The notes below the pieces were generated by a model, which worked only from the letters and a program-made list of their open reading frames with translations, was not told where the DNA came from and ran no database searches. Position numbers and translations under genes: made by a program. A DNA stretch of 64,000 nucleotides from Escherichia coli (GTDB taxonomy: Bacteria > Pseudomonadota > Gammaproteobacteria > Enterobacterales > Enterobacteriaceae): the NCBI RefSeq assembly GCF_003334335.1, contig NZ_QOWQ01000003.1. The stretch is one strand, 5' to 3'. This document shows, piece by piece, positions 2,462 through 39,820 of this stretch (position 1 is its first letter; every line of letters starts with the position of its first letter).

Positions 2462-3109
2462 ATGTCCGATAACGCTCAACTTACCGGTCTGTGCGACCGT
2501 TTTCGTGGTTTTTATCCTGTTGTGATCGATGTTGAAACAGCCGGATTTAACGCCAAAACCGATGCGCTGCTTGAGATTGCCGCCATCACCCTGAAAATGG
2601 ATGAACAAGGCTGGCTGATGCCGGACACCACATTACATTTCCACGTCGAACCATTTGTCGGCGCAAATTTGCAACCAGAAGCCCTCGCCTTCAACGGCAT
2701 TGACCCGAACGATCCCGATCGCGGCGCGGTCAGCGAATACGAGGCGCTGCACGAAATTTTTAAAGTTGTACGTAAAGGTATTAAAGCGAGCGGCTGTAAC
2801 CGCGCCATTATGGTGGCGCACAATGCCAATTTTGATCACAGCTTTATGATGGCCGCCGCAGAACGCGCCTCACTGAAACGTAACCCGTTCCACCCTTTCG
2901 CCACTTTTGACACTGCTGCACTGGCCGGGCTGGCACTCGGACAAACCGTATTGTCAAAGGCTTGCCAGACCGCTGGCATGGACTTCGACAGCACCCAGGC
3001 GCACTCCGCGCTGTACGACACCGAACGCACTGCTGTGCTGTTTTGTGAAATCGTCAACCGCTGGAAACGTCTGGGAGGCTGGCCGCTATCTGCCGCCGAA
3101 GAGGTGTAA
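2462..3109 (+). CDS. rnt: Ribonuclease T (DEDDh exonuclease)
   Basis: ORF track 215 aa; recognised RNase T sequence. Confidence 0.92.
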
Positions 3110-3201
3110 TCGAGTCGATGCCTGATGACATGCAATGATTCAGGCATCTATAGTGAGGCTATTCCACTCATCCTGCATGATATTCACGGGGAATAGCGTT
3201 A

Positions 3202-6200
3202 ATGGCAGATAATCCAGACCCTTCATCGCTCCTGCCGGACGTGTTTTCACCGGCGCCCCGCGACTGGTTTCTTCGCGCCTTTAAACAGCCGACCGCTGTC
3301 CAGCCGCAAACCTGGCATGTGGCGGCGCGAAGCGAACATGCGCTGGTGATTGCACCGACCGGCTCCGGGAAAACGCTGGCAGCATTTCTCTACGCCCTCG
3401 ATCGGCTCTTCCGCGAAGGCGGCGAAGATACCCGCGAGGCGCATAAGCGTAAAACCTCACGCATCCTCTATATTTCACCGATAAAAGCCCTGGGCACCGA
3501 CGTTCAGCGCAACTTGCAGATCCCGTTGAAGGGTATTGCCGATGAACGGCGGCGGCGCGGCGAAACGGAAGTCAATCTTCGCGTAGGGATCCGTACTGGC
3601 GATACGCCTGCACAGGAACGCAGCAAACTCACCCGTAATCCGCCGGATATTCTGATCACCACACCCGAATCACTCTATCTGATGCTGACCTCCCGCGCGC
3701 GCGAAACGCTACGCGGCGTCGAAACGGTAATTATTGATGAAGTCCACGCGGTAGCGGGCAGTAAACGTGGTGCGCATCTGGCGTTAAGTCTGGAGCGGCT
3801 CGATGCGCTGCTCCACACCTCAGCACAGCGAATTGGCCTTTCTGCCACTGTGCGCTCAGCCAGCGATGTGGCAGCATTTCTTGGTGGCGATCGCCCGGTT
3901 ACGGTAGTCAACCCGCCCGCAATGCGCCATCCGCAGATACGAATTGTCGTACCGGTCGCCAATATGGATGATGTCTCATCGGTCGCCAGCGGCACCGGCG
4001 AAGACAGCCATGCCGGCCGGGAAGGCTCCATCTGGCCATATATTGAAACGGGTATCCTTGATGAAGTGTTGCGCCATCGCTCGACCATTGTCTTTACTAA
4101 TTCGCGGGGGCTGGCGGAAAAACTGACGGCACGATTAAATGAGCTTTACGCCGCACGCTTACAGCGTTCCCCGTCTATCGCCGTTGATGCGGCCCATTTC
4201 GAGTCGACCTCCGGCGCAACCTCTAACCGTGTACAAAGTAGCGACGTTTTTATTGCCCGCTCACACCACGGCTCCGTCTCTAAAGAACAACGAGCAATCA
4301 CCGAACAGGCGCTGAAATCGGGTGAATTACGCTGCGTGGTCGCAACCTCCAGTCTTGAACTGGGGATTGATATGGGCGCGGTGGATCTGGTGATTCAGGT
4401 GGCAACGCCGCTTTCTGTTGCCAGTGGGTTACAACGCATTGGTCGCGCCGGACATCAGGTTGGCGGTGTATCTAAAGGGCTGTTTTTCCCCCGTACCCGG
4501 CGTGATTTAGTCGATTCCGCAGTCATTGTAGAGTGTATGTTCGCAGGCAGGCTGGAAAACCTGACACCACCGCATAATCCTCTCGACGTCCTTGCGCAGC
4601 AAACCGTTGCCGCCGCGGCGATGGATGCATTACAGGTAGACGAATGGTACTCCCGCGTACGCCGTGCCGCACCGTGGAAAGATCTGCCAAGACGTGTTTT
4701 TGACGCCACGCTGGATATGCTTTCCGGGCGCTATCCCTCTGGCGATTTTTCTGCTTTTCGCCCCAAACTGGTCTGGAACAGGGAGACCGGGATATTGACC
4801 GCCCGACCTGGCGCTCAATTGTTGGCGGTTACCAGCGGCGGCACCATTCCGGATCGTGGCATGTATAGCGTGTTATTACCCGAAGGTGAAGAAAAGGCCG
4901 GTTCGCGGCGGGTGGGTGAACTGGATGAGGAGATGGTATATGAGTCGCGGGTGAACGACATTATCACTCTCGGCGCTACCTCATGGCGGATCCAACAAAT
5001 CACCCGCGATCAGGTGATTGTGACTCCTGCTCCGGGTCGTTCTGCCCGGCTCCCCTTCTGGCGTGGTGAAGGTAACGGACGTCCGGCTGAATTAGGCGAG
5101 ATGATCGGCGATTTTCTTCATTTGCTGGCGGATGGCGCGTTCTTTTCCGGGACTATTCCCCCGTGGCTGGCAGAAGAAAATACGATCGCCAATATTCAGG
5201 GGTTGATTGAGGAGCAGCGCAACGCGACGGGCATCGTTCCGGGGAGTCGCCATCTGGTCCTCGAACGGTGCCGTGATGAAATTGGTGACTGGCGTATTAT
5301 TTTGCACTCTCCCTATGGAAGACGGGTGCATGAACCCTGGGCGGTGGCGATTGCCGGGCGAATACATGCGCTATGGGGCGCTGACGCGTCGGTGGTCGCC
5401 AGTGATGACGGCATTGTTGCACGTATTCCTGACACCGATGGTAAATTGCCCGATGCCGCGATTTTTTTGTTTGAACCAGAAAAGTTGCTGCAAATTGTCC
5501 GCGAGGCGGTAGGCAGCTCGGCACTTTTCGCCGCCCGTTTTCGCGAATGCGCCGCGCGGGCATTATTAATGCCGGGGCGCACTCCGGGCCATCGCACCCC
5601 GCTTTGGCAACAACGGCTGCGCGCCAGTCAGTTGCTGGAAATCGCTCAGGGATATCCGGATTTTCCGGTCATTCTCGAAACCCTACGCGAATGTCTGCAA
5701 GATGTTTATGATCTTCCCGCACTGGAACGTTTGATGCGTCGCCTGAACGGTGGCGAAATTCAAATATCCGATGTAACGACCACTACGCCCTCGCCTTTCG
5801 CCACAAGTTTATTGTTCGGCTATGTCGCGGAATTTATGTACCAGAGCGACGCCCCGCTGGCAGAGCGCCGGGCATCCGTACTGTCGCTGGACAGCGAGTT
5901 ACTGCGCAATCTACTCGGACAGGTCGATCCGGGGGAATTACTCGACCCGCAGGTCATTCGCCAGGTGGAAGAAGAGTTGCAACGACTGGCTCCTGGCAGA
6001 AGAGCGAAAGGTGAAGAAGGATTGTTCGACCTGCTGCGCGAACTGGGGCCAATGACCGTTGAAGACCTGGCGCAACGGCATACAGGCAGCAGTGAAGAGG
6101 TTGCGTCGTATCTGGAAAATCTTCTTGCAGTAAAACGAATCTTCCCAGCGATGATTAGCGGACAGGAGCGTCTTGCCTGTATGGATGATGCCGCCAGGCT

Positions 6201-38205: not shown

Positions 38206-38574
38206 CTATACCCCAAAGCTTTCGCCACAGCCACATTCATTCTGGGCTTTAGGGTTGTGAAATTTGAATATCTGATTAAGTCCTTCACGAACGAAATCGA
38301 CTTCCGTGCCATCAATAAACGGCATCGCTTGCAGCGGGACAAACAGCTTCGCGCCGTCGTGTTCAAACAGCAGATCGTCTTTGTCCGGCTCGCTAACACT
38401 GTCGAGCACATAGCCAAAGCCCGCGCAGCCCGTTTGCTTCACGCCTAAGCGCACGCCGACCATACCCGGCTGCTTTGCCACCAGCTCACGGATGTGTATC
38501 GCCGCTGCGGGTGTCAGCGTTAAGCCTTGCCAGGCGAAATCTTGTGGGTTAAAGGTTCCTGAATGCATGTCCAT
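38206..38574 (-). CDS. sufA: A-type Fe-S carrier SufA
   Basis: ORF track 122 aa; C-terminal CGCGESF motif. Confidence 0.93.
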
Positions 38575-38620
38575 CGATTTACCTCACTTCATCGCTTTCA
38601 GCGTATAACAGCATGTTAGT

Positions 38621-38633
38621 GATAATGATTATC
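38621..38633. promoter_or_regulatory. Fur-box-like GATAATGATTATC overlapping the sufA promoter
   Basis: GATAAT-G-ATTATC palindrome 47-59 bp upstream of sufA ATG; the suf operon is Fur-repressed. Confidence 0.45.
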
Positions 38634-38851
38634 AGTTCAACCCAGCAAACGCAGGGGCTTTACCGTAAAACATGCTTTTTGCCTGCTTTTAATAAGCATA
38701 GACCCTGATGTGTGGGTTAACAGGCACGCTAAGAATTAGGTATCTCATTGTTAGATAATGGTTATTATCTAAGGAGCATTAAGGCTGTGATGAAAAAGAA
38801 AAAGTTGTATTGAAAATGACTATTTAAGAGATAGGTAAAAAAGTGCAGCGT

Positions 38852-38925
38852 TCAGAAATAAGAAAACCCTTAAGTCTGTGCGACACAGGCTTAAGGGTTT
38901 CTACCCCATCCGGCGCTTATCTCCG
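38852..38925 (-). ncRNA. rydB: Probable small RNA RydB region (sufA-ydiH intergenic); coordinates approximate
   Basis: 17-bp near-perfect stem AAACCCTTAAGTCTGTG/CACAGGCTTAAGGGTTT at 38864-38900, with a U-tract on the minus strand; rydB maps to this interval in K-12. Ends not determined. Confidence 0.3.
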
Positions 38926-39121
38926 GCACTCTCAGTGGCTTAGCTCTTGAAGGGGCGATAAGAATAATCTCATAAAGCTAACCCGCCGTTTTAACACAAA
39001 CTGCGATTAGTATTATTTTTGAACAATATCAGGCGGTAGATAAGCAGTATTAAGAAGGTCATCGAACCTGGACGGAGGTTAATCCAGGTCGATTTGGCGA
39101 ACTTGCGGCATTAAGTCAGGA

Positions 39122-39310
39122 TCAATGCACGCCCAGACGCCAGGCAAAGTAGATTTCTTCTTTTAATTCAGCAGAAGAGAGAGTAAGCAGGTCAGCAAAT
39201 TCAAGTTCTAGTTGTTTCAGACGTTTGAGATATTGGGCAGGTGAAAGATTGCTCTGGTCACGGCGTAAAAATTCAATGGCCAGCTGGGTGGGATCAAGTT
39301 GAGTAGACAT
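39122..39310 (-). CDS. ydiH: Small protein YdiH (62 aa), unknown function
   Basis: Start chosen at MSTQLDPTQ; ORF track gives an 89-aa extended version. Confidence 0.7.
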   Translation of the reverse strand: MSTQLDPTQLAIEFLRRDQSNLSPAQYLKRLKQLELEFADLLTLSSAELKEEIYFAWRLGVH

Positions 39311-39409
39311 AGCATCCTCGCTTTTAGACAAGACCTGCACAGTATACCACCGTTTACTGTGCAGATAATGACCAAAAGCAATATGCGTCACACTTTTCTG
39401 GTGACAACG

Positions 39410-39820
39410 TCACAAAATGGCGGTCGTCAATCGTGACGAACAGCACAAACGCCCTTTCTCATCGAAGATTTCAATCTGCCAGACCTGGTGACGCGAACCG
39501 AGATGCAACGGTTTGCATACGCCGCGCACCCGCCCTTCTCGTGCCGAGCGGACGTGGTTAGCATTGATTTCCAGACCAACCACTTTTTGCTCACCTTCGG
39601 TACATAAATAACCGGCAACGGAACCGATACTTTCGGCCAGTACCACGGATGCTCCTCCATGCAGCAACCCGAAAGGCTGCTTTGTCCGCGAGTCTACTGG
39701 CATTGTCGCTTCAAGGGTGTCATCACCAATATGTTCAAAGCGAATATCCAGGAACCCCACCATGTTTCCTTCACCCATAGCATTCAGTGCTTCCAGGGTG
39801 ATTTTCCGTTTCCATATCAT
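39410..39820 (-). CDS. menI: Hotdog-fold thioesterase (1,4-dihydroxy-2-naphthoyl-CoA hydrolase) MenI/YdiI
   Basis: ORF track 136 aa; 4-bp overlap with ydiJ. Confidence 0.88.
   Translation of the reverse strand: MIWKRKITLEALNAMGEGNMVGFLDIRFEHIGDDTLEATMPVDSRTKQPFGLLHGGASVVLAESIGSVAGYLCTEGEQKVVGLEINANHVRSAREGRVRGVCKPLHLGSRHQVWQIEIFDEKGRLCCSSRLTTAIL

Follow-up and report, generated by a model that had tools for sequence, protein, structure and literature searches.

The intergenic DNA between rydB and sufA in Escherichia coli carries a short palindrome and a long hairpin, and the question it raises is what each of these inverted repeats does for the genes on either side. A first-pass annotation, made from the sequence, had offered the palindrome as an additional Fur, IscR or OxyR site or as a promoter element of the small RNA, and the hairpin as the terminator of rydB or ydiH. 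We followed up both elements in the 64,000-nucleotide stretch of E. coli K-12 DNA that contains them (hereafter the window, in which a coordinate equals the NC_000913.3 coordinate minus 1,725,812). A 571-bp query around the palindrome and hairpin was 100% identical to strain BW25113 and was found in 5,422 of 5,426 complete E. coli genomes; beyond the species, the comparative set consisted of 80 Enterobacteriaceae sufA loci, whose upstream regions were aligned or scanned.

We conclude that the palindrome and the hairpin are two separate, already characterised elements of the rydB-sufA intergenic region. In the joint reading that we favour, and that we hold to be likely, the palindrome belongs to the known ORE-II/IHF site of sufA and the hairpin is the terminator of rydB, with the trailer removed from the RydB RNA. 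The genes of the locus all lie on the minus strand and the order of transcription is ydiH, rydB, hairpin, palindrome, sufA:

38206-38574, minus strand: sufA (mapped from NC_000913.3)
38901-38968, minus strand: rydB as annotated (mapped from NC_000913.3)
39122-39310, minus strand: ydiH (mapped from NC_000913.3)

At four loci from Citrobacter and Salmonella, rydB and its hairpin lie 0.9-1.9 kb from sufA instead of the usual ~380 bp; inserted extra DNA (STM1368 in Salmonella) separates the terminator from the suf control region, and the rydB-hairpin unit is intact. The gap between menI and ydiH holds another long inverted repeat at 39319-39380, CTGCACAGTA-N10-TACTGTGCAG with extended flanks; it closely precedes the ydiH start codon and could be a menI terminator-like structure or a ydiH leader structure. 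An Rfam match to mir-1278 at the same positions, at 22 bits versus a gathering score of 61, was set aside as a chance match to this repeat.

The palindrome and the sufA control region

The elements upstream of sufA, with positions given relative to the inferred sufA start where stated, are as follows:

38613-38661, minus strand: sufA core promoter (motif matches and promoter geometry)
38613-38618, minus strand: sufA -10, TAACAT (sequence)
38620-38634, minus strand: Fur box TGATAATGATTATCA (perfect 7-1-7 match)
38635-38640, minus strand: sufA -35, TTGAAC (sequence)
38636-38661 (-30 to -55), minus strand: IscR type-2 site (perfect match)
38741-38753 (-135 to -147), minus strand: IHF core element TAACAATGAGATA (2 mismatches to WATCAANNNNTTR)
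38751-38772 (-145 to -166), no strand assigned: palindrome, a perfect 9+9 inverted repeat (sequence)
38798-38836 (about -192 to -230), minus strand: OxyR-type block ACCTATCTCTTAAATAGTCATTTTCAATACAACTTTT, ORE-I (conserved block)

Promoter geometry puts the sufA start at A38606, or 32 nt before the ATG, the same distance that Lee et al. are said to have given in 2004. The core promoter is conserved in the alignment, and the promoter-proximal Fur box to which the first-pass annotation had drawn attention was borne out as a perfect 7-1-7 element that is kept everywhere. Between the IHF and IscR sites, at 38688-38705 (about -82 to -99 from the sufA start), lies the block GGGTCTATGCTTAwTAAAAG, which across 14 aligned Escherichia, Citrobacter and Leclercia sequences is as conserved as the Fur box. 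The block includes half-repeats of the ATGC type (ATGCTTATTAAAAGCA) and matched none of the motifs scanned; it could be a site for another regulator, NsrR being no more than our guess.

The palindrome was described at first with 8-bp arms at 38752-38771. It is indeed perfect, but its arms are 9 nt long, TTAGATAAT (38751-38759) and ATTATCTAA (38764-38772), separated by the spacer ggtt. In first-order Markov simulations of the 547-bp intergenic region at 41% GC, a perfect 9+9 repeat with a spacer of at most 10 arose in 2.4% of runs; for an 8+8 repeat the figure was 9.4%. The palindrome is unusual, not extreme. Its base composition (A or T at 17 of 22 positions) and its place are more informative: it lies directly 5' of the IHF core and overlaps that core by its last 3 bases.

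The K-12 core, TAACAATGAGATA, has 2 mismatches to the IHF consensus, and matches this good are common, with 494 in the window. Cores with 0-1 mismatches to WATCAANNNNTTR occur in the same upstream zone at 68 of the 80 sufA loci; in 61 of these 68 the distance to the sufA ATG is 179-181 nt, and 44 cores match perfectly. Across genera the core is preceded by a conserved flank, AAAnnCATTATT, which supplies the AT-rich 5' tract of an IHF site, and the K-12 palindrome aligns exactly onto this flank and the core, with the proximal arm (38751-38759, reading ATTATCTAA on the minus strand) composed of the conserved CATTATy and the first three bases of TAACAATGAGATA. In the footprints that Lee et al. 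reportedly obtained in 2004, ORE-II extends from -156 to -127 and ORE-I from -236 to -197. The ORE-II span, which we take to correspond to 38762-38733 here, includes the IHF core and the proximal arm, and the palindrome is best read as the AT-rich 5' flank, or half, of the known IHF site ORE-II.

Reviews of suf regulation divide the region into ORE-I for OxyR, ORE-II for IHF and ORE-III for IscR and Fur, and describe IHF binding at ORE-II as required for OxyR activation; they also describe how bending or looping by IHF brings the far-upstream OxyR site to the promoter (PMC8300815, PMC8593673). By this scheme, IHF would bend the DNA at the palindrome and core, and OxyR at ORE-I, ~80 bp further upstream, would thereby contact RNA polymerase at the sufA promoter. 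The consequences for suf regulation are small, in that the palindrome adds no regulator to a promoter whose control by OxyR, IHF, IscR and Fur was already known.

The two-fold symmetry of the palindrome calls for its own account. In the 80-locus comparison, arms of at least 8 nt are confined to E. coli-clade sequences and the other loci have arms of 1-6 nt. Because the distal arm belongs to the E. coli lineage alone and the proximal arm (CATTATy) is the only one conserved across genera, the perfect symmetry is most likely incidental to an AT-rich, bendable flank and not the mark of an operator for a dimeric regulator. Escherichia (K-12 and five further loci) has a degenerate IHF core with 2 mismatches, in contrast to most other genera, whose core at this distance from sufA is perfect or has a single mismatch; the clade with the degenerate core is also the clade whose flank became palindromic.

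The other regulators proposed for the palindrome fit less well. For OxyR, conservation favours another place: the conserved OxyR-type block sits ~60 bp further upstream, at 38798-38836, and is the only place at which OxyR-type conservation extends across genera, with CTAT-N7-ATAG present at 56 of 80 loci and almost always 259-261 nt upstream of the sufA ATG, which in K-12 corresponds to 38834-38798, about -228 to -192. A crude OxyR consensus gave 13/20 for the palindrome region, equal to the true site, so that the scan itself cannot separate the two. For IscR, a scan with the type-2 consensus (AWARCCCYTSnGTTTGMnGKKKTKWA) returned nothing with up to 9 mismatches overlapping the palindrome, and the perfect type-2 site of the region is the one at 38636-38661. 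A promoter element of the small RNA is impossible, as the palindrome comes after rydB in the direction of transcription.

Fur is the candidate that the arms themselves bring to mind, for they hold perfect GATAAT and ATTATC hexamers. An auxiliary operator here would have Fur dimers occupy the inverted GATAAT hexamers at -150/-160 and compete with IHF, so that iron would govern activation by OxyR and IHF. Across four compared E. coli strains the arms do not change and the spacer alone varies, being GGTT or GATT; the GATT variant, which is common and probably ancestral, gives AGATAATGATTATTA, with just 2 mismatches to the 7-1-7 Fur motif TGATAATnATTATCA. The K-12 sequence, however, has 3 mismatches to that motif and 6 to the 19-mer GATAATGATAATCATTATC, the latter a background level reached by 23 equally good sites in the window, and its hexamers are arranged 6-4-6 and not 6-1-6. 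Whereas the genuine Fur box is conserved everywhere, the distal arm is lost beyond the E. coli clade, and the reviews put Fur at ORE-III only. We therefore consider an auxiliary Fur operator very unlikely, and the extra Fur box of the first-pass annotation is not supported.

We give still less credence to the idea that the palindrome is a second, upstream sufA promoter or the operator of an E. coli-specific regulator. A promoter scan did return 38791-38764 on the minus strand (ATCACA, 16-nt spacer, GATAAT; 9/12 matches) with the distal arm as its -10, and the palindrome is perfect and fixed within E. coli. But the scan gave 3 sites against 1.6 expected by chance, and the sequence is not conserved beyond Escherichia. 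We know of no report of an upstream sufA start site. The reading of the palindrome as the 5' flank of the IHF site is the one that we retain.

The hairpin downstream of rydB

The second inverted repeat comprises two parts:

38864-38900, minus strand: hairpin (17-bp stem, 3-nt loop) immediately after the RydB body
38854-38866, minus strand: U-rich tail UUUUCUUAUUUCU (sequence; conserved in CCCUUAAG-type hairpins)

Its description as a 17-bp hairpin with one mismatch, at 38864-38900 and with a U-tract on the minus strand, proved correct. The arms (38864-38880 and 38884-38900) are 17 nt each and 94% complementary; their one mismatch reads C-A in RNA from the minus strand and G-U in RNA from the plus strand. 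After the G+C core of the hairpin comes, on the minus strand, UUUUCUUAUUUCU, of which the first three U's can pair with the AAA at 38898-38900. Folding of the minus strand, a check that the first-pass annotation had proposed, gave -22 kcal/mol with z = -6.05. No other 17-nt stem with at most one mismatch occurs in the window, and none occurred in 10 simulated windows.

A long stem-loop 0-4 nt after the RydB body was found at 24 loci from six genera (Escherichia, Citrobacter, Salmonella, Leclercia, Pseudenterobacter and Silvania). At 20 of the 24, the lower stem (AACCCUUAAG/CUUAAGGGUU) and a good U-tract are conserved, and the upper stem and loop vary with compensation. In an alignment of 21 sequences, 93.8% of the cells in the helix were paired and 7 of the 17 pairs showed double compensatory changes; the covariation score was reached by 0 of 500 shuffles, and sliding the partner columns collapsed the pairing. 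Wobbles across species are mostly G-U on the rydB strand, and every variant tested folds stably (z from -4.5 to -9.3). Four loci of the Citrobacter koseri type carry an unrelated, perfect stem of 19-20 bp (CGAACGrTC...) 3' of rydB, with a weak U-tract in at least two of them (L014 and L022). This replacement of one long stem by another suggests that the long stem itself, beyond termination, is under selection.

The hairpin thus has the stem-loop and U-tract of a Rho-independent terminator, together with compensatory conservation. The proposal that it terminates rydB or ydiH is sustained by its lying on the same strand directly after rydB, by the U-tract, by the covariation across genera and by RepRanger, which lists a Rho-independent terminator (RIT) for rydB; the Salmonella rydB, annotated at 105 nt, has a length that would include the hairpin. 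The mapped RNA end qualifies it: the one 3' end that the curated Term-seq table gives for this region falls 5 nt into the 5' arm and not at the U-tract. The complete curated Term-seq table holds no 3' end at 17645xx or 17646xx (NC_000913.3), and ends at the U-tract would be expected near 1764664-1764675. A consensus terminator scan of 38400-39500 also returned no site, probably because the scanner does not tolerate an internal mismatch; given the clear folding and covariation, this negative was set aside. Structure and conservation, and not an observed end, point to termination at the U-tract. The hairpin is a conserved terminator-type structure for both rydB and ydiH, the latter because no other terminator follows ydiH.

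Under this reading, the hairpin and U-tract would stop transcription of rydB, and any read-through from ydiH, as a Rho-independent terminator, and would shield the suf control region, which Fur represses, from a small RNA gene that is expressed very strongly. Basal sufABCD mRNA amounts to ~0.07 copies per cell, and so low a level with rydB only ~300 bp upstream implies that insulation at the hairpin would be efficient.

Two further origins for the hairpin, a REP-like or otherwise mobile palindromic element and the plus-strand terminator of an antisense transcript, are in our judgement barely credible. Plus-strand RNA does have a G-U pair in place of the C-A mismatch. Its tail, UUUCUACCCC, is nevertheless poor, most wobbles are G-U on the rydB strand, and there is no converging plus-strand gene. 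As to a mobile element, the insertion sequence IS1397 has entered at the foot of the hairpin in one isolate, but the hairpin is present in one copy per genome (median 1 place, 5,421 genomes), and a dispersed REP/BIME palindrome was rejected on that count.

The insertion itself is found in E. coli SC434, a soil isolate (NZ_LR778142.1; positions 2842-4276 of our locus L082). The IS3-family element lies exactly at the foot, at a point equivalent to 38897-38900 of the window, with a GTTT target duplication, and splits the RydB body from its terminator. IS1397 prefers palindromic units as targets.

The 3' end and abundance of RydB

The RNA encoded upstream of the hairpin is defined by two features:

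38896-38956, minus strand: mature RydB RNA, 61 nt (Rfam and Term-seq)
38964-38972, minus strand: putative extended -10 of the rydB promoter, TGaGATTAT (inferred from sequence)

The Rfam model RF00118 (rydB) matches 38896-38956 over its full length (81.6 bits, E 2.6e-19), and the hairpin lies outside the match except for the last 5, unpaired model positions. Mapping of RNA 3' ends, which had been put forward as a check on the hairpin, yielded one end in its 5' arm and none at the U-tract. This 3' end, at 1764708 on the minus strand (38896), is the only one in the region and was recorded in all three growth conditions (Adams et al. 2021). It coincides with the end of the Rfam model and is the fifth base of the 5' arm of the hairpin; from there to the loop is 12 bp, and the GGGG that closes the RydB body lies 8 nt before it.

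The Term-seq scores of this end are 2.17 and 4.14 million (two entries), compared with 2.2 and 0.9 million for tmRNA, 1.2 and 3.9 million for CsrB and 3.7 and 6.0 million for processed GlmY; 6S RNA (0.4 million) and lpp (0.08-0.18 million) score lower. RydB has no known targets or function, and a score on par with tmRNA, CsrB and processed GlmY is remarkable for a small RNA without a known target.

No U-tract lies just upstream of 38896, which means that intrinsic termination does not itself produce this end. As it falls inside the 5' arm, the abundant form of RydB is one without the hairpin. We infer that processing has most likely stripped the mature 61-nt RydB of its terminator; if the trailer is lost rapidly, this could also explain the missing 3' ends at the U-tract. 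The primary rydB transcript would then be ~95-105 nt long and quickly processed, with a nuclease or 3'-to-5' trimming removing the hairpin to leave the abundant 61-nt RydB that ends at 38896. Candidate routes are a cut by RNase III in the stem, or an endonuclease cut followed by an exonuclease that stalls 8 nt from the RydB body.

The same data could be taken to mean that the hairpin is mainly a processing determinant, for example an RNase III site, that fixes the 3' end of RydB, and that transcription ends elsewhere or inefficiently. The dominant 3' end does fall within the stem, with 12 bp between it and the loop; at 17-20 bp the stem is unusually long; and the curated Term-seq table has no end at the U-tract. 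The C. koseri group, moreover, has an unrelated but equally long stem with a weak U-tract, and where the U-tract is poor (L014 and L022) such a stem fits processing as well as or better than termination. On the other side, a good U-tract is present at 20 of the 24 loci, the main text of the RNase III target paper makes no mention of rydB, and the 8-nt tail past the closing stem of RydB is also expected from a stalled 3' exonuclease. Exonucleases such as RNase II and PNPase, when stalled, would leave a tail of this kind. We regard a role mainly in processing as unlikely, and termination followed by trailer removal as the preferred account.

A combined function is somewhat easier to entertain, though still doubtful: the long stem would be both the terminator and a specific substrate, cut for instance by RNase III at 12 bp from the loop, from which RydB would obtain its precise, terminator-less 3' end. 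If this is true, RydB would be a very abundant, stable-RNA-like molecule akin to GlmY or M1 RNA and not a base-pairing small RNA of the Hfq type, and the hairpin would be at once a processing signal and an insulator of the suf control region.

The 5' end of rydB can be approached from its promoter region, where the block ATGAGAnTATTCTTAT is conserved. The putative -10 and the start of the Rfam match at 38956 together suggest a transcription start near 38956-38957, in which case the annotated 5' end at 38968 would fall inside the -10. The MG1655 record for rydB (1764713-1764780, 68 nt) fits neither this likely start nor the mapped 3' end at 38896 (1764708), and E. coli genomes annotated by PGAP have no rydB feature under the match. 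For annotation, the E. coli record omits the conserved terminator and the Salmonella annotation appears to include it. Functional work on RydB could be guided by regarding it as very abundant and processed at its 3' end.

Comparison with known systems

The palindrome matches the known ORE-II IHF site in locus, in position and in design, being a core with an AT-rich 5' flank between the OxyR site and the IscR/Fur promoter, with a spacing conserved across Enterobacteriaceae. There is no functional difference; what distinguishes E. coli is that the flank is a perfect 9+9 palindrome and that the core is more degenerate than in other genera. With a Fur box the palindrome shares inverted GATAAT/ATTATC hexamers, but these are spaced by 4 nt and not 1, with 6 mismatches to the 19-mer, and the palindrome is not conserved, unlike the genuine Fur box 130 bp downstream.

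The hairpin resembles the Rho-independent terminators of other small RNAs in being a stable, covarying stem-loop with a U-tract, directly after the body of the RNA and on the same strand, and differs from them in the unusual length of its stem, 17 bp. Mature RydB departs from typical Hfq-dependent small RNAs in that it lacks its terminator and ends inside the 5' arm. In this respect it is closer to GlmY, M1 RNA (rnpB), 4.5S RNA and tmRNA, which likewise have very high Term-seq 3'-end scores at positions without a U-tract. The precursors of these four RNAs are longer and bear terminators, and by analogy with those of GlmY and M1 RNA, the RydB precursor would also be longer than the mature RNA and carry the hairpin as its terminator.
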